A DNA stretch of 64,000 bases from Thermoplasmata archaeon. GTDB lineage: Archaea > Thermoplasmatota > Thermoplasmata > Lutacidiplasmatales > UBA184. Position numbers and translations under genes: made by a program. The stretch is from positions 27,288-91,287 of the forward strand of contig JBAUYF010000007.1 in assembly GCA_049584655.1 (NCBI GenBank), read 5' to 3'. How positions within the stretch are numbered: the stretch's first letter is position 1; the number at the start of each line of letters is the position of its first letter. The notes under the pieces were generated by a model. It was not told the DNA's origin. It saw nothing but the letters and a program-made list of their open reading frames with translations, and searched no databases. This document shows positions 5,817-62,302 of the stretch, in pieces.

Positions 5817-6740
5817 ATGTTCAATGTGGAAGTAGTCGTCGCGCTCGCGATTCTCGCCGGGCTAATGGCCGGCGGGAACTCCTACATCTTTGTACAGTTC
5901 TTCCCCCGTCGGGGGGGGACCCCCAATTTGGGCCGGGCGATCCTCGTAGCGGGGCTGCTCGGTTCGTCCCTTTGCGTCTGGCTTGCGGTGATGTGGGCCG
6001 TCGTGGTACCCAGCTTCGGAGCTTGGCTCGCGGTCTTCCTCGGTATGAATTCCATGATGGTGGCGGTTGGCGTCTGGTTCGTCGCCATCTTCCTTCGCGC
6101 AGAAGAAAGGATGGTGCCTTCCGGGAGCTGGGGTTGGGCGGCAACGTTGTCCCTCTTGGTGATCGGGAATGAACTATTCATGGGAACATCGTTCGTCGGA
6201 GCCGTGGGAGGTCCCGGCGCTCTCTTGGCGGGATCCACTCCGACCCTGATCTCGGGATTCACGGCGTCCGTCAACTCGTTGTGGTTCTTCTGGGCGATGC
6301 TCGCAAATCTGACCTGGCTCGTCCTCTGGCTCCCCCTCGCTCGGAACGAAAAGGAGGCGTTGCTTGGTCTGAGCTCCGTAACGATCGTAGGCCCCTGGGT
6401 GCTTTGGAGCCCGTTCTGGGGACCGCTGGCCCTCCTCCTAGTGGTAGTGATGGTGGCCCTTCTCGTACTTCGATCGTACCGCGCCACGACCCAACCCACT
6501 GTCCGCTACTCCAGGATCGTGACTGGGTCGATTGCGGGGCTGGTGACCGTCGCGGGGGGCGCGACCATTGCCGGGCTGACTGCTGATTCTCCATTCGGAT
6601 CCCTCGCGTGGGCATCGGCTGCCTTCTTCGTTCTCTTCTTCCAACTCCTGTTCTTGTCTCAGTCGGCGTTGAAGCATACGACGCCGGCCGCGGCCAGCAC
6701 CTCCCTACCACTCACGGCACCTAGCGCCGCCTCCGAGTGA
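5817..6740 (+). CDS. hypothetical polytopic membrane protein
   Basis: 307 aa with 8 or more hydrophobic helices and a Trp-rich sequence. No recognisable family. Confidence 0.6.
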   Translation: MFNVEVVVALAILAGLMAGGNSYIFVQFFPRRGGTPNLGRAILVAGLLGSSLCVWLAVMWAVVVPSFGAWLAVFLGMNSMMVAVGVWFVAIFLRAEERMVPSGSWGWAATLSLLVIGNELFMGTSFVGAVGGPGALLAGSTPTLISGFTASVNSLWFFWAMLANLTWLVLWLPLARNEKEALLGLSSVTIVGPWVLWSPFWGPLALLLVVVMVALLVLRSYRATTQPTVRYSRIVTGSIAGLVTVAGGATIAGLTADSPFGSLAWASAAFFVLFFQLLFLSQSALKHTTPAAASTSLPLTAPSAASE

Positions 6741-9774: not shown

Positions 9775-10185
9775 CTAGCGGAAGTGGCGCGAAACCGCGA
9801 TCAGGTAAATCGCCAGGATCAACGCCACGATGAATCCGAATGTGATGAACGCTCCGGCCAATCCGTAGGACACCATCTCAAAGATCAGGAAGATGAGCGT
9901 AAGGACCAGGGCCCATAGACGCAGATGCCAGAGACCCACCGCGAGGCCGAGAATAATCAGGCCCACGATGAGCACGATCAGCCCGCCAATGACCCCCGAG
10001 AACCCGAAATGCCCGAACAGGTTCCCTCCTCCGTACTTGACCCCAATCGAGGAACCCACGGCCAGGAAGAGGCCCAGCAGGAACACGACGAACCCATAGA
10101 TCCCGATCAACACGGCGAGGATTGCCACGCCCAAAGGTCGGGAGGGCCGGGTCTCGTAGACCGCCGTGGTGGGTTCTGCCGTCAT
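9775..10185 (-). CDS. four-TM membrane protein, paralogue of 31263..31724
   Basis: 136 aa. Shares LW-x3-WAL...E...Y...YL(I/L)AV(S/R)R(H/Y)F C-terminal architecture with the 153-aa protein at 31263..31724. Confidence 0.6.
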   Translation of the reverse strand: MTAEPTTAVYETRPSRPLGVAILAVLIGIYGFVVFLLGLFLAVGSSIGVKYGGGNLFGHFGFSGVIGGLIVLIVGLIILGLAVGLWHLRLWALVLTLIFLIFEMVSYGLAGAFITFGFIVALILAIYLIAVSRHFR

Positions 10186-21122: not shown

Positions 21123-21488
21123 CTACCGCTTCGCGACGAGAAACAAGATCCCGCTGATCAAGAGGCAGAGGGAGGCCAGGATCGCAAGAACGCCGGACGC
21201 AAAACCTAACGCGAGCCATCCGACGACCGCCATTACCACGAGGATGATCCCGGCCGCCAAACTCTCGTCGCCCCATCGTGACCTTCCGAGAATCGCAAAA
21301 AATCCGGCGATAAGCCCGACGACAATGAAAACGATCGACTGATCCAGGGACGAGAACGACGCCCCCGCTCGATGAGTCGCGAGGAAAAAGGCGCCCTTGA
21401 AGAAGTCAAAGATGCCGTCTAAGACCAGTAAGGCAGCCCCCAGCAAGCCAAACAGCAATCCAAGCGGGCGGTCCGAGCGGTACGTCAC
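21123..21488 (-). CDS. hypothetical four-TM membrane protein
   Basis: 121 aa with four hydrophobic helices. Confidence 0.55.
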   Translation of the reverse strand: MTYRSDRPLGLLFGLLGAALLVLDGIFDFFKGAFFLATHRAGASFSSLDQSIVFIVVGLIAGFFAILGRSRWGDESLAAGIILVVMAVVGWLALGFASGVLAILASLCLLISGILFLVAKR

Positions 21489-55928: not shown

Positions 55929-56093
55929 CTAATAGGCGTCGGTATAGGTCAACAGGTAGAGGACGCCCCCGACCATCACGGTGAGGAGGATCAGGATCGA
56001 GATCGGATTGGAGGAAAAGACCGCGACCGTCAACCCGATCAACACAGCGGGGAGGAGGATCGCCAGGAGGAATGTCCAGAGCTTTCCGTCCAT
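55929..56093 (-). CDS. 54-aa two-TM membrane protein downstream of the FtsZ-like gene
   Basis: MDGKLWTFLLAILLPAVLIGLTVAVFSSNPISILILLTVMVGGVLYLLTYTDAY. ATG 56093, TAG 55929-55931. Same strand, 87 nt after the FtsZ-like stop. Below the ORF-track cutoff. Confidence 0.5.
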   Translation of the reverse strand: MDGKLWTFLLAILLPAVLIGLTVAVFSSNPISILILLTVMVGGVLYLLTYTDAY

Positions 56094-56180: not shown

Positions 56181-57104
56181 TCAGTGGAGCGCCTCGGGGG
56201 GACGCGGAGGAGATTCGATCTCGAACGTCAACTCGGCCTCGTGGAACGACGGGCTGGCGGCAGGGGTAGGGGCGTAGGGGCCTAGTCGGGCGGGGCTCTC
56301 GGGCGGAAGCGAAACTTCGATCGTCAGGGGAGCCGACTCGGGGGGCTCGTTCATCGCCCGCCGCGCTCCGAGGGGCCGGGCCGCGGCCGCCGCTACGAGT
56401 GCTTCTGTGGGAATGAGATAGGCTTTCTCGATGTGACTCGCGATCGTTTCCGCCCAGTGTTGGTCCAGCTGGTTGAAAGGAAGCTTGCGCTGCCGCGCCG
56501 CCAGGTACTCGTTGTCGAGGACCTGGAGATTCGCACACCCACGTTGTTGCTTCGCGACGAACTCCTCCACGAAATGCAGGCGCGCCAGCCCACGATCCGC
56601 AACGGACCGGCGGTCCCCTTCCGCGAGGAAGGGCTTGATCACAAAGGCGGAGAGGATTTCGCACTGCCGTGCGGCGGCGCCAAGTACGTAAGGGAACGCT
56701 CCCGTTCCACTGCCGCCCCCCAGACTGCCGACGACGGTGACGAATGTGGCGCCCTCAAAGATTCGGTCCAGCGCCGGCTGCGCGGCGTGCGCCAGCATAC
56801 CGCCGACCACCGTGGAGCCACCGGTATCGGTCTCGACACCCGAATCGGGACCCAAGTAAACGCGTCGATCGAACTCCTCGAAACCCTGGACGCGGGGATC
56901 GCAGTTGATGGCTACGGTCTCGAGATAGCGAAGATGTCGGCGGGCGATGGCCCGGCCGACTTGGATAGCTCCGCCGCCGACAGCGGCCAAAACGAAACGG
57001 ACGTCGTGACCGAGCCGCAAGTCCTCCAACCCTTCGACCGCCGGGTCGGACGGCTCTTCCAGGTTGATCTCTCGGTTGGGTCCATCTCGTGCGGCCTCGT
57101 ACAT
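56181..57104 (-). CDS. FtsZ/tubulin-superfamily GTPase, N-terminal GTPase domain only, with Pro-rich repeat tail
   Basis: Start at ATG 57104 (GGGGAG 6 nt upstream). AVGGGA (T1), VAINCD, SLGGGSGTGAFP (tubulin signature), KPFLAEGDRR and VLDNEYL are collinear with the FtsZ N-domain. No T7-loop/C-domain. The tail carries LTIEVSLPP and LTFEIESPP repeats. Confidence 0.75.
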   Translation of the reverse strand: MYEAARDGPNREINLEEPSDPAVEGLEDLRLGHDVRFVLAAVGGGAIQVGRAIARRHLRYLETVAINCDPRVQGFEEFDRRVYLGPDSGVETDTGGSTVVGGMLAHAAQPALDRIFEGATFVTVVGSLGGGSGTGAFPYVLGAAARQCEILSAFVIKPFLAEGDRRSVADRGLARLHFVEEFVAKQQRGCANLQVLDNEYLAARQRKLPFNQLDQHWAETIASHIEKAYLIPTEALVAAAAARPLGARRAMNEPPESAPLTIEVSLPPESPARLGPYAPTPAASPSFHEAELTFEIESPPRPPEALH

Positions 57105-57670: not shown

Positions 57671-57678
57671 TATTTAAA
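57671..57678 (-). promoter_or_regulatory. TATA box (TTTAAATA) for the RHH / FtsZ-like operon
   Basis: Perfect archaeal TATA consensus TTTAWATA on the minus strand in a locally AT-rich spacer. About 33 nt upstream of in-frame GTG 57642. Confidence 0.5.
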
Positions 57679-57887: not shown

Positions 57888-58739
57888 CTAATCGACTCCC
57901 GCGATGCCGTAGATCTGGATCGCGGCGAGAATGGTCGACGGGTATCCTTCGTAGGTCAGGTAGATCTCACACGCCCCCGGCACCACGAAGCACCAACCAG
58001 GAGCGCCGTGGAAGTCGTCCCCGTCGACGCAGGGGTTGCCGGAGTAACCCGGGGCGCAGTCCCCGCTGTAGTCGAGCGGGGTTCCCGGGGTGTGCGTGTA
58101 CAGGATGAACGTATCCCCATTGTTGACCACGCCGGAATAGTTCAGGAGCGGTACGAAAATCCCGAGCCGATTGTACAGTGTGCTATAGGACCCCGAGGGG
58201 ATGAACGTCCCGCACTCCCCGAGGTGGGGCGCGTTAGGGGCGGGTCCCGTGGAACTTCCCGGGAACCAGGTCATGGCCGCCAATGATCCTTGTACCAAGT
58301 AGGTCGTGTAGTTCTGCCCCAGAGCATTGGTCGCTCGGCAGACGAACGAGAACTGGATCTCATCCAGCGAGATATCATCGGGTGTGTGTTGGGTAAAAAC
58401 GATCTGCGTGGAATTCATCTGGGAGTAATTCCCGGTCGCCGTAGTATCACACTGATACGTGATCGCGTTTCCCAACGTCCAGGTGTGCGGGAGCACGTTG
58501 TTGACCCAGGGAAAGTGATACGAATCGAATGTACAGTCGGTCGGATCTCCCCAGACGGGATTCGAAGTGCCCGATCGAACCAGGTAGGAAAGCGTGGGAG
58601 CGGGAGTGGGAAGGTTGAGGTGGAACTCCCACAAGATCGAGCCGACGGCCACCGTCAGGCCGACCAGGAGGACCATCGAAATGATGGTGCTCACGGCCCG
58701 CAACGGCCCAACGCGCCGACGGGACCACTTTCGGACCAT
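57888..58739 (-). CDS. archaeal type IV pilin-like protein (class III signal peptide)
   Basis: N-terminus MVRKWSRRRVGPLRAVSTIISMVLLVGLTVAVGSIL has a basic leader, a small residue, then a hydrophobic helix (pilin_N/DUF1628-like). Four N-x-S/T sequons. Confidence 0.7.
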   Translation of the reverse strand: MVRKWSRRRVGPLRAVSTIISMVLLVGLTVAVGSILWEFHLNLPTPAPTLSYLVRSGTSNPVWGDPTDCTFDSYHFPWVNNVLPHTWTLGNAITYQCDTTATGNYSQMNSTQIVFTQHTPDDISLDEIQFSFVCRATNALGQNYTTYLVQGSLAAMTWFPGSSTGPAPNAPHLGECGTFIPSGSYSTLYNRLGIFVPLLNYSGVVNNGDTFILYTHTPGTPLDYSGDCAPGYSGNPCVDGDDFHGAPGWCFVVPGACEIYLTYEGYPSTILAAIQIYGIAGVD

Positions 58740-58962
58740 CGGCGTAAATACTTGGACTCGAGGGATATCTACTTTGCCTTGGCCGGGCTTTCCTCTCGAG
58801 AGCGAGATTCGCCCTCGTCGCGGATCCGGCGTCTATCGAGTGAGGAAGGGCGAGGAAGAAGAGCGGCCTCTCCCCGAGTGAGTGTGTGTCAATACGCATT
58901 GATATGCAGGCCGACTATTGACGATTTGTAAGTCGTTATTTGTCGTTTCCACTCGGCTATGC

Positions 58963-58971
58963 TTTTAAATA
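58963..58971 (+). promoter_or_regulatory. TATA box (TTTTAAATA) upstream of pilin gene 59030..59623
   Basis: Matches archaeal TATA consensus. About 60 nt upstream of the ATG, with GGAGG 10 nt before the ATG. Confidence 0.5.
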
Positions 58972-59029
58972 GGGGAGGCTTTCCATACGCATACCTGCGG
59001 GTCGAAGGACCCTCGGAGGAAAAAGGCGA

Positions 59030-59623
59030 ATGCACGTATTTGGACGGAAAGCGAGAAGTTGGAGAAAGGGGCGCAAGCGGGGAGTATCCCCGATCATCGC
59101 TACGATTTTGCTCGTGGCGATTACCGTGGTACTGGCTGCCGTGCTCTATATCCTCATCTCGGGATTGACGAAGGGACCCGGCAACACGCCGCTTAGCACG
59201 GCGTTTGGATTCGGAACAGCGACCCAAGTGAACCCGACAGCCACTACGGCTGGCGAGTGCACAGCAGCTCACTTCTGCTATGAGATCGCGATTAGCGAAG
59301 CGAGCGGCGGGCTCACGGCGAACGATATCCAGCTGAAGCTGACCACGAATACGGGCACGATCATTGCGGTGAACGACTTCTATGTCGATGCCGCGAACTT
59401 GGCCGTGAACGGTTATCTCGCGTCCGCCGTCAACCCCTCCGGGGCATGGGCGTCGACCGCGGGAACGGGTGGAGCAGCCGTCGAAATTACGGGCACGACC
59501 GTCATGACCGGCGCGATGGTCATGTGGATCGATATTACCGCGTCCGTATACGGCACCGGCGCCATCTTGACCGCGTTCGGACAGGGGTCGTTCTCGTCTT
59601 CGGTCTCGACCACCCTCCCGTAA
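59030..59623 (+). CDS. archaeal type IV pilin (class III signal peptide, pilin_N domain)
   Basis: KGRKRGVSPIIATILLVAITVVLAAVLY is the canonical archaeal prepilin N-terminus (cleavage expected after RG). Thr/Ala/Gly-rich beta domain. Confidence 0.8.
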   Translation: MHVFGRKARSWRKGRKRGVSPIIATILLVAITVVLAAVLYILISGLTKGPGNTPLSTAFGFGTATQVNPTATTAGECTAAHFCYEIAISEASGGLTANDIQLKLTTNTGTIIAVNDFYVDAANLAVNGYLASAVNPSGAWASTAGTGGAAVEITGTTVMTGAMVMWIDITASVYGTGAILTAFGQGSFSSSVSTTLP

Positions 59624-59753
59624 GTCAGTCGCAGCACGTCTAGACCAACCCTTTCCAATTCCCATTTTTCAACCGCCATTGCGGCGACCTTAGCGCCCGC
59701 GCGTCGGCGATCCAAACGCTTGCGCTGGGAACGTCTAAATAGGCCCCCTTGGA

Positions 59754-60980
59754 ATGATTTACCGAGAGGTCGTTGTGAGAAGGGCCAGTCGACGTGTTGC
59801 GCTTCGAACTCAGAATTTCCGACGCTCTCGGCGGTCCTTCCGCCGGAACGGCCGCGGGGTATCGGAGGTCGTCGCGACGATCCTGCTGCTCGGTCTCACC
59901 GTAACGTTGTTCTCCTCTATCTTTTTCTTCGTCAACACGTTTCCCCGACCTCCTTCCCAATCTGCCAGCCAGTTCCAGGGGTCGCTGCTCTTTACGCCGA
60001 ACGGTGGCTACATCACGAACGTCCTGATCTTGCACCTCTCCGGTCAAGTGCTGAGCTCGCCCGTGACGACGATCTACATGCGATCCTCGGCGAACCCGGG
60101 CTTCTACAGCGCCCAATACACGGTCGCGCAGGGGCTCAATGGCTCCAACTACTGGGCGCTCGGTCAGACCTGGAACATCTCGCTCACCTCCACGGGACCG
60201 CAGCCCGGGCCCTCTCCCAACGGCGACCCCGTCCCGGACAACATGACCGTCTACATCCTGTCGGGAACGCAGTTGATTTTCACTGTCACGCTCCCCGGTC
60301 AAGTGCCGGCGCTGGCCCCTTACTTTACGAATTTCGGAACCAAGCCGTCTCCCCCCGTGGTGGCGCAGGCCTTCAATATAACGATCTTCGTCTCAAGCAC
60401 CGATCTGAACACGCACTCGGTCTACGTGAACATCTCGCAGCTTCCGGGAGTGTCGGGCGCCTTGCTAAACGCCCAGAAGATGACGAAGGGCAGCTTACCG
60501 GGGGAATACTACTACAACGTCCCCGCCGGGGTGACTTCGAATACGGGGACCTACTACGTGGTGTTCAACGCTACCGATGCCATGACAGGCCTTCGGGGGG
60601 CGCAGGGCTTCGCCTTGACGATCCAGACGCCCAGCAGCCCATCCACGCTGCTCACCGTGGGGGCCGTCAACTTGACGGCTGTCTATCACGGAGGCACGAA
60701 ACCGGCGTACTTCTCCGCGATAGTTTCGGACCTGGCCGTCTCCGGGGGTACGGCGAACGTCACGGTTTGGTTCAACATCACGATCAACGGAGGCGCGTCC
60801 ACTACGATCGGCACGGCCGTCACCGGAACGGTGGGCCCGGGCGGGACCATCACCTTGAATTCCGCAGCGTTCAAGACGGCCGCGACGAGCGCCGCGGGTC
60901 AGAAATGGGTCCTGCTGGTCACGGCGACCGCAACCAGCTTGGGGACCGCCACGGGAACGATCTCGGGCGTCCTCAGTTAG
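59754..60980 (+). CDS. large archaeal pilin-like surface glycoprotein (class III signal peptide)
   Basis: RRNGRGVSEVVATILLLGLTVTLFSSIFFF prepilin-like N-terminus after an Arg-rich leader (alternative GTG start at codon 8). About 9 N-x-S/T sequons. Confidence 0.7.
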   Translation: MIYREVVVRRASRRVALRTQNFRRSRRSFRRNGRGVSEVVATILLLGLTVTLFSSIFFFVNTFPRPPSQSASQFQGSLLFTPNGGYITNVLILHLSGQVLSSPVTTIYMRSSANPGFYSAQYTVAQGLNGSNYWALGQTWNISLTSTGPQPGPSPNGDPVPDNMTVYILSGTQLIFTVTLPGQVPALAPYFTNFGTKPSPPVVAQAFNITIFVSSTDLNTHSVYVNISQLPGVSGALLNAQKMTKGSLPGEYYYNVPAGVTSNTGTYYVVFNATDAMTGLRGAQGFALTIQTPSSPSTLLTVGAVNLTAVYHGGTKPAYFSAIVSDLAVSGGTANVTVWFNITINGGASTTIGTAVTGTVGPGGTITLNSAAFKTAATSAAGQKWVLLVTATATSLGTATGTISGVLS

Positions 60981-62089
60981 CCCTGCGGACCCTTGTTTGC
61001 GGAGCGTAGCGGAGCTGACTCCGCACTATTCGGAAGCGAAACTCCGCACTTCCAGCATGACGTCTCGTTCGGATAGACGACGGCTTGGCAGTTTGGACAA
61101 CGGCGCTCGTCGACCGTCGAAGCGATGCTGGACCCCGCCGCGGTCCCCGGCGGCGCTGCGAGATTAGTCGGGCCCGATCCAGGATTCGCCGGCGGGGCCT
61201 GGGCGTTTGATTCCGCTCGGGCCGCTTCTTCCTTCCGGTTCGCTTCTCGCCGCTTGAACCAGATGTAGACGACCAGCGCGAAGAAGAAGACCCCGCCCAC
61301 GTAGAGGAAGACCTCGACGTAGAGACCCAGAATGACGCCCTCGAGGGTGGTGAAAAAGTCGCCCGTTACGGGACCCTCGATCCCTCCGCTGTAGCCGTTA
61401 TTCTCGTTCAGGAAGATCCAGTAGTTCGGCGTGGACTTGTTGGTGGACGCGTTGATGTTCCGGACCGCCAACCCCATCTGGAACCACCAGACGTTATTCC
61501 CGTTGAGCGCCAGGGGGATTTCGACCAGAGTCGTCCCGTTCGTATTCGGGGGGAACGTGTAATTGCCTACCACCAACGGGTAGGGGGTTCCGCAATTGGA
61601 CGAAGGGGGAGGAGAGGAGCCCGTGGCGCCCGGACAAGTGCTAACCCAGACGTTCAGCCATTGAGGGGTCCCATTTCCCGGGGGGATGTACTGGGGGTAG
61701 ACGGAGACGCTGAAATTGTAGGTCCCCCCGCTGTTGCCGAGGAAAGGTGATACCTGGGCATTCTGGAGCACGGAATTGCCGTTGCCGTTCGGCAAACTGG
61801 GATCCGAGCTACCCGGAGACGACGGAGTTCGCAATTCCTGCGCGTAAAAAACGGTGAAAGCGGGAGTTGCGATCAGGAGGGCGACGATCCCCAAGGTCGC
61901 GAGGTACCGGGGTCGCTTCATTCCGCCCAAGATGGGGACCGCGAGGCCGAAGATCAGGAACGCGGGGATCGCGATGAGAACGCCTAGGTAGGCGAGTGAC
62001 GCAAATAGGACGAGCGTGGCGAGGGCAATGAGAGCGATTCTTCCCCACCGAGTTGCGACGAAAGCCCTAAAGCCGCCCTTCCGCTCCAC
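60977..62089 (-). CDS. polytopic membrane protein with glycosylated extracellular domain and cytosolic C-terminal zinc ribbon
   Basis: Three N-terminal TM helices, a ~200-aa Asn/Gly/Pro-rich domain with 6 sequons, a further TM region, then RRCPNCQAVVYPNETSCWKCG. 4-nt convergent overlap with 59754..60980. Confidence 0.65.
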   Translation of the reverse strand: MERKGGFRAFVATRWGRIALIALATLVLFASLAYLGVLIAIPAFLIFGLAVPILGGMKRPRYLATLGIVALLIATPAFTVFYAQELRTPSSPGSSDPSLPNGNGNSVLQNAQVSPFLGNSGGTYNFSVSVYPQYIPPGNGTPQWLNVWVSTCPGATGSSPPPSSNCGTPYPLVVGNYTFPPNTNGTTLVEIPLALNGNNVWWFQMGLAVRNINASTNKSTPNYWIFLNENNGYSGGIEGPVTGDFFTTLEGVILGLYVEVFLYVGGVFFFALVVYIWFKRREANRKEEAARAESNAQAPPANPGSGPTNLAAPPGTAAGSSIASTVDERRCPNCQAVVYPNETSCWKCGVSLPNSAESAPLRSANKGPQG

Positions 62090-62302
62090 AGACGAGCGGA
62101 GGCGAGTCGGCCTTCCTAATTAAGCAGTGGGGGGCGGACCATCGTCGAGACAGCCGGAACTGACCCTCGACTCGCGCTGATCATCCTCGACGGCCTCGGA
62201 GATCTGCCCCATCCCGACACGGGCGGGCTTTCTCCGGTCGTAGCGGCTCGGACGCCGAATCTCGACCATTTACTCACGCTCGGGCAGTCCGGACAAGTCG
62301 TT

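Follow-up and report, generated by a model that had tools for sequence, protein, structure and literature searches.

A probable type IV pilin locus in a fixed genomic slot of a Lutacidiplasmatales-type archaeon, beside a conserved membrane protein with a putative zinc ribbon

Contig JBAUYF010000007.1 (assembly GCA_049584655.1) of a Thermoplasmata archaeon carries, within the 64-kb stretch of DNA that was analysed here (the window), four adjacent genes that we refer to as A, B, C and D. The four open reading frames (ORFs) of a preliminary description of this DNA were all recovered where it had placed them, and they have in common the high G+C content at third codon positions that forms the coding signature of the window. 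We consider it probable that the main pilin locus of a Lutacidiplasmatales-type archaeon lies here and that in it a cassette of pilin genes occupies a fixed slot in the genome, the machinery that assembles the pilins is encoded elsewhere, and the membrane protein D is a separate matter. The window comes from a Thermoplasmata metagenome-assembled genome (MAG) of the Candidatus Lutacidiplasmatales lineage, and D has a counterpart of 100% identity, named "zinc ribbon domain-containing protein", in another Thermoplasmata MAG (GCA_049584295.1, contig JBAUXN010000013.1).

The preliminary description proposed that A, B and C begin with prepilin-type N-termini. The N-termini quoted there were PLRA followed by VSTIISMVLLVGLTV in A, KRG followed by VSPIIATILLVAITVVL in B and GRG followed by VSEVVATILLLGLTV in C. 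These give the class III sites RA/VST, RG/VSP and RG/VSE, each with a basic residue at -2, glycine or alanine at -1 and a hydrophobic stretch downstream. Prepilin cleavage is predicted between A15 and V16 in A, G18 and V19 in B, and G35 and V36 in C, and hydropathy assigns each protein a single hydrophobic segment, located at the N-terminus. A FlaFind-like regular expression applied to the six-frame translation of the window finds exactly three sites, which are those of A, B and C, against 0.04 in shuffled sequence. Family models support two of the three proteins. The search with Pilin_N (PF07790) that had been suggested as a check places B (32.4 bits) and C (31.1 bits) above the gathering score of 25.2 bits and A below it, and with TIGR02537 (cut-off 20 bits) B passes at 50.3 bits and C stands exactly at the cut-off (20.0). 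As far as their sequences can tell, A, B and C are made with class III signal peptides. Two other identities were considered and rejected. The proteins are not archaellins, as none of the three has a PF01917 match at E <= 1 and the order is reported without archaellum genes, and they are not solute-binding proteins of the bindosome type, as such a domain is absent.

B is likely the major pilin. It has more than 1,300 homologues, and the named ones are mostly Thermoplasmata "archaellin/type IV pilin N-terminal domain" proteins. The stretch from residue 19 to residue 45 does not vary among 61 aligned sequences, and the median identity to B is 95% in the helix (residues 19-56) but about 31% in the head (57-197). 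From V19 onwards B reads VSPIIATILLVAITVVLAAVL, and the modelled mature chain of CdiPB, a pilin of Cuniculiplasma divulgatum (PDB 8REY), starts VSPIIATILLIAITVVLAATL; 19 of these 21 residues are identical. An AlphaFold model of B, with a predicted local distance difference test score (pLDDT) of 83, contains a helix at 21-46 and then a beta-sandwich head at 59-195, and an N-terminal alpha-helix with a beta-sandwich head is a trait of archaeal type IV pilins. The mature protein would consist of 179 residues with a single head of this kind, like known major pilins. A Foldseek search of the model against the PDB returned no significant match. In these alignments B displays the evolutionary pattern of a pilin, with an N-terminal helix that hardly varies and a head that is hypervariable. 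At four other loci (L175 and L177-L179) the genes in the position of B (P0207, P0226) share its invariant N-terminus and have an unrelated head, so that only about 55% of the query is aligned. This suggests, from the aligned portions, that the head domain was replaced at a fixed locus rather than diverging gradually.

C is, by its domain layout, a modular large pilin. We detected 50 relatives of 331-711 residues, named type IV pilin of Thermoplasmata, and an ORF analysis finds C-type proteins of up to about 700-850 residues in the slot described below. Pilin_N is present in 33 of 35 relatives, CARDB in 6 and PKD domains in 1. Identity falls along the protein, from 75% at residues 36-75 to 38% at 76-280 and 20% at 281-408, which delimits a conserved pilin module at about 36-280 and a variable C-terminal part. 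A scan with family models recognised no domain in this C-terminal part and no solute-binding domain in C. The protein A contains 8 cysteines. Searches of PDB sequences with A and C gave no meaningful match.

The position of these genes is best understood by comparison with other species. When species-representative genomes were scanned, D turned up in 130 stretches, and the 80 that were listed are nearly all labelled Thermoplasmata archaeon; two of these 80 are labelled Ca. Lutacidiplasma silvani or Ca. Lutacidiplasmatales. Across the order the arrangement of genes is nearly universal over about 20 kb, from AdoHcyase to FTCD. If D is taken as the plus strand, this order is PPDK, Trm5, apgM (minus), D (plus), the pilins, a gene for a ribbon-helix-helix (RHH) protein (plus), an FtsZ-like gene (plus), a gene for a 54-residue transmembrane (TM) protein (plus), PAC2 (minus), FEN1 (plus) and FTCD. 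Variation is confined to the interval between D and RHH, which holds between 0 and 4 pilin genes per species. There were 56 species loci that contain both D and RHH. The slot holds C and B in 21 of these, C without B in 17, B without C in 5, C with two B genes in 3, and a set that includes an A-like gene in just 5; in the remaining 5 no pilin was recognised. In four of these last five D is intact, and the gap between D and RHH measures 205-295 bp with no gene inside. Five further homologues of B and C lie on long contigs; four are in the same slot, and at the fifth locus (L012) a tandem pair of pilin genes sits beside a major facilitator superfamily (MFS) transporter gene, without D. Two conserved backbone genes thus delimit a fixed slot that is taken up by a fast-evolving pilin cassette. 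Relatives show the four genes in synteny, which the preliminary description had put forward as a check on its cluster, but since everything around them is collinear as well over the whole of the 20 kb, the synteny of the pilins and D says little. At one locus (L069) the gap between D and RHH is 3.3 kb without a recognised pilin, and beyond apgM there is a C-like ORF of about 2,324 residues without a class III motif.

No assembly machinery is found close to the cassette, in agreement with the preliminary description, which had seen no assembly ATPase, platform or peptidase nearby. The scanned ORFs of the window (large or multi-TM) contain no match to T2SSE, T2SSF or the A24 peptidase, nor do the Pfam-annotated genes within 10 kb on either side of D on contig JBAUXN010000013.1. 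At the loci of the five further homologues of B and C, no PilB or PilC lies beside the pilin copies. Machinery at a distance has precedents. In Cuniculiplasma divulgatum about 500 kb separate the pilin genes cdiPA and cdiPB from the machinery operon, and Haloferax volcanii has several remote pilins that are served by a single PilB/PilC pair (PMC12448462). The missing machinery is therefore not unusual for archaeal pilins.

Based on these results we propose the following model. A PibD/ArlK-type A24 peptidase encoded elsewhere would cut the precursors after G18 in B, G35 in C and A15 in A. An ATPase and platform of the PilB/PilC type (AapE/AapF-like), also encoded elsewhere, would polymerise B, and the hydrophobic helix of B would form the core of the filament. 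C would serve as a minor pilin or adhesin of modular build, and A, where present, as an accessory protein; both would be of low abundance and may be N-glycosylated at their sequons.

The preliminary description called these proteins glycoproteins, citing about 4 and 9 sequons in the proteins of 283 and 408 residues. We count 4 in A, 9 in C, 7 in D and 0 in B. Going by sequons, the label is plausible for the outside domain of D and for the proteins C and A, and it does not hold for B. No other ORF of the window is as dense in sequons as C, D and A, which have 2.2, 1.9 and 1.4 per 100 residues against a background of 0.31, while the excess over what their own composition predicts is marginal (p of about 0.05 for C, 0.09 for D and 0.22 for A). 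Six of the sequons in D are in its outside domain and one is in its cytosolic zinc ribbon. We rejected the enrichment as a sign of special glycosylation, because it mostly reflects a composition rich in N, S and T.

Several points weigh against the model. No gene for PilB, PilC or PibD was located in the scanned ORFs of the window or in the 10-kb flanks, nor one for PilB or PilC at the homologue loci, and the Lutacidiplasmatales are reported without archaellum genes (Sheridan et al., PMC9287336). A survey of this order for type IV pilus machinery is apparently absent from the literature; the supplements of PMC9287336 have no pilin, prepilin or secretion entries, and we found no mention of pili in the Thermoplasmatota genome papers that were searched. 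The Pilin_N score of A is 16.3 bits, and as this is below the cut-off, A is identified by its motif and by the N-terminal similarity to B and C. Furthermore, B is not always found beside C, as the 17 slots that hold only the large C-type gene illustrate. B has no sequon, whereas CdiPB carries two glycans. Finally, in 51 of the 56 species of the order D has one or more pilin genes next to it, which makes a lineage-specific functional link between D and the pilins conceivable.

One alternative is that none of the class III proteins is a subunit of a filament. They could be cleaved surface glycoproteins that remain anchored by the helix, with C as an adhesin or envelope protein with immunoglobulin-like (Ig) domains; the set might be part of a disordered glycoprotein coat of the wall-less Thermoplasmata, or resemble the bindosome of Sulfolobus. 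The missing machinery and the reported lack of archaellum genes fit this explanation, as do the large size of C-type proteins, the CARDB or PKD domains in some relatives and the slots that hold only C. In addition, passages of PMC12448462 state that Thermoplasmatales have an unordered protein layer and not an S-layer. However, conservation of the 38-residue helix of B reaches 95% across the order, and this helix is almost the same as the one that forms the core of the CdiPB filament. This constraint is far above what a simple membrane anchor needs. B is also small with a single beta-sandwich head, as known major pilins are, and C is without a solute-binding domain, so we regard surface anchoring as an unlikely explanation. 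It would be more unusual still if the order had no canonical PilB and PilC and the slot proteins together with D formed a new, machinery-independent system for displaying or anchoring pilin-like proteins, which might be coupled to the RHH and FtsZ-like proteins; we give this hardly any credence.

The remaining alternatives concern D, and these require a closer look at the protein. Hydropathy and an AlphaFold model (pLDDT 86.8) agree on helices at residues 14-35, 37-54, 60-86 and 245-296 and on a beta-sandwich at 93-242. The fourth helix runs into a basic stretch, which is followed by a disordered linker rich in proline and alanine and then by a putative zinc ribbon with four cysteines (Cys4). 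Basic clusters occur at the N-terminus (MERK..R..R.GR), in the first inside loop (KRPR) and after the last helix (KRREANRK), and these place both termini and the ribbon in the cytosol. The topology in the preliminary description, with a sequon-rich domain outside and a ribbon inside, is thereby borne out by hydropathy, the model and the basic clusters. An alignment of 42 homologues contains a conserved IEGPV motif, and the ribbon cysteines C331, C334, C345 and C348 (CxxC-x10-CxxC) are invariant in it. The wider pattern E..CPNC.AVVYPNE..CWKCG is almost invariant, with the loop AVVYP.E..CWKCG invariant or nearly so. Matches to zinc-ribbon models are below threshold, at 18.7 bits for DZR (PF12773, cut-off 27.3) and 14.4 bits for Zn_Ribbon_1 (PF13240, cut-off 25), and the homologue P0106 does reach the latter cut-off (25.5 bits). 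The body of D, that is three TM helices, the beta-sandwich and the fourth TM helix, had no match among the Pfam and NCBIfam families and none to a specific solved structure.

D belongs to a sizeable family. We collected 109 full-length homologues, and a profile search of 1.84 billion representatives returned 438 D-family proteins (cluster representatives), including a second tier of proteins of 300-345 residues with the same architecture and shared motifs. Some species have a longer D, e.g. 616 residues in P0088 (L008, 10001-11851) and ORFs of 530-750 residues in L021, L031, L069, L080 and L084, the longest of about 747 residues. In P0280, P0283 and P0286 the profile matches in two or three stretches, which suggests a duplicated or inserted outside domain. 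The MAG AcS4-93 (L015, L090) has two copies of D on different contigs, one of which is 1.8 kb long; these may be paralogues or may reflect strain heterogeneity in the bin. The preliminary description considered an outside domain joined to an inside ribbon an odd combination. This was overstated, as zinc ribbons on membrane proteins recur in this lineage and the DUF7575 and DUF7577 families describe such ribbons. For example, a double zinc ribbon (DZR) protein of about 1000 residues is encoded about 10 kb from D, outside the window and at the far end of the collinear block (L001, 1-421). With a length of about 950-1100 residues it is conserved there in L004, L005, L008 and L010 as well.

It had also been suggested that D couples a surface structure to a module in the cytosol. 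In that case D would be a dedicated partner of the pilins, e.g. an anchor, stator or sensor, and the four genes a functional cluster. The adjacency in 51 of 56 species, the outside beta-sandwich combined with a strictly conserved ribbon inside, and the fast divergence of D (42% identity, against 55-69% for its housekeeping neighbours) could all be read in this way. The layout of the genes argues otherwise. A spacer of 290 nt separates the divergent genes A and B, and B and C follow each other in the same direction 130 nt apart, but D converges on C. The overlap of 4 nt that had been described here is formed by the two stop codons, so D and the pilins cannot share a transcript or an operon. The adjacency is embedded in the order-wide collinearity, the four species without slot genes still have D, and B-like pilins exist without D (L012). 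Distant homologues of D provide further evidence. We fetched 80 such loci, where the neighbours are genes for carbamate-kinase-like proteins, a DRG GTPase and topoisomerase VI A. A profile of the N-terminus of B and C matches none of the 80, and the same profile matches 74 of 92 loci (L001-L092) of this order. The single match of the class III regular expression at the distant loci is about 4 kb away in one locus. A pilus accessory protein is expected to show conserved linkage or co-transcription with pilin or machinery genes across lineages, and D does not. A dedicated partnership is therefore improbable in our view. A further idea, that D belongs with the co-directional RHH, FtsZ-like and 54-residue genes, for instance as a membrane tether of the FtsZ-like protein, and that the pilins are a later insertion, is suggested by the empty-slot species, in which D lies 205-295 bp upstream of the RHH unit in the same direction, and by the conserved cytosolic ribbon and tail. 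It seems very improbable, since the distant loci have no RHH, FtsZ-like or apgM homologue near D and the arrangement sits inside a block of frozen synteny. Returning to the pilin cassette with machinery elsewhere, the convergent orientation, the four empty slots and the distant loci without pilins indicate that D is independent of it. D is probably an unrelated, conserved and uncharacterised membrane protein that flanks the slot, and not a pilus component. Our best guess is that it is a surface-exposed membrane protein that docks a partner in the cytosol by way of its strictly conserved ribbon and its C-terminal tail.

The coordinates of the locus are collected in Table 1.

Table 1. Genes, domains of D and promoter-like elements at the locus, in window coordinates
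Feature	Position	Strand	Remarks
Gene A, pilin-like	57888-58739	-	283 aa
Gene B, archaeal type IV pilin	59030-59623	+	197 aa
Gene C, large pilin	59754-60980	+	408 aa; public annotation starts at GTG 59775, 401 aa
Gene D, membrane protein with zinc ribbon	60977-62089	-	370 aa
D residues 93-242, extracellular beta-sandwich	61364-61813	-	six sequons; invariant C152 and C166
D residues 331-348, putative zinc ribbon (Cys4) in the cytosol, CPNCQAVVYPNETSCWKC	61046-61099	-	from alignment
RHH gene	57142-57642/57669	-	
FtsZ-like gene	56181-57104	-	
54-aa two-TM protein gene	55929-56093	-	
TATA-box-like TTTAAATA	58964-58971	+	59 nt before the start codon (ATG) of B
TATA-box-like TTTAAATA	57671-57678	-	before the RHH gene
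TCTAAATA element	59733-59740		before C

The same TATA box was said to occur at the pilin and RHH loci, and this is correct; TTTAAATA is found exactly twice in the 64 kb, where 0.14 occurrences are expected. In relatives it precedes B at 7 of 40 loci and RHH at 2 of 51. As these consensus boxes are not conserved, we attach no regulatory meaning to the coincidence and have dropped the idea of a shared regulon. On its other side D diverges from apgM across a short spacer. This spacer contains a palindromic TTAATTAA at 62118-62125 that could be a bidirectional TATA element.

The genes beyond the pilins deserve a brief mention. The three-gene unit of RHH, FtsZ-like and 54-residue two-TM proteins is kept in about 50 of the 56 species of the order. 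The RHH protein has 166-175 residues and a weak match to haloarchaeal CdrS (E 5e-5). The FtsZ-like protein, of 307 residues, is a divergent member of the tubulin/FtsZ family that lies far outside canonical FtsZ; it scores 58.9 bits where the ftsZ cut-off is 295 bits, and its match is confined to the GTPase domain (about residues 40-177). The arrangement is reminiscent of the haloarchaeal pair cdrS-ftsZ2. Elsewhere in the window, the ORFs at 5817-6740 (plus), 9775-10185 (minus) and 21123-21488 (minus) encode predicted membrane proteins with no Pfam family at E <= 0.01.

This is a first description of a probable pilin locus in an abundant, uncultured order of archaea from acid soils that has so far been described as non-motile. 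An invariant core helix combined with hypervariable heads and a changing copy number would fit a selective pressure from viruses or from the surfaces to which cells attach. D, for its part, defines a widespread and undescribed family of Thermoplasmatota membrane proteins with a strictly conserved cytosolic ribbon. Neither the pilin locus nor the D family alters the current understanding of type IV filaments.

It is useful to compare the locus with systems that are already known. For D the nearest points of reference are Zn_Ribbon_1 (PF13240), DZR (PF12773) and the membrane fusions of DUF7575 and DUF7577, which the ribbon of D matches weakly and its body does not match at all. For C a useful comparison is PilB of Streptococcus sanguinis, a bimodular pilin (PMC8179133) that likewise joins a pilin module to extra C-terminal domains. 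That protein is bacterial and has no sequence relationship to C, where Ig-like domains (CARDB or PKD) occur only in some relatives. The Haloferax volcanii pilins PilA1-6 and other Pilin_N pilins (PDB 8FJ5, 8GI2) have the class III peptide and the conserved hydrophobic domain in common with the proteins described here, and the genes for PilA1-6 are likewise dispersed away from pilB and pilC. Haloferax belongs to another phylum-level lineage, the heads are unrelated, and function and assembly have been demonstrated by experiment for the Haloferax pilins.

The closest relative among known systems is the CdiPB/CdiPA pair of Cuniculiplasma divulgatum, which is of the same class, Thermoplasmata, and was determined by electron cryomicroscopy (PDB 8REY; Gaines et al. 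2025, PMC12448462). Some differences are clear. Outside the helix B has no detectable sequence similarity to CdiPB, and it is the N-terminus that accounts for the E-value of 3e-4. The head of B is larger (179 against 135 mature residues). The second gene of the cassette, C, encodes a modular protein of 400-700 residues, unlike the Cuniculiplasma pair. The common features are, in the first place, the genomic setting, as CdiPA and CdiPB are also encoded by two adjacent genes, there far from the machinery and here with the machinery not located. B and CdiPB are both built from a helix and a beta-sandwich head, and from V19 onwards the mature N-terminus of CdiPB, VSPIIATILL[IV]AITVVLAA, is nearly identical to that of B.

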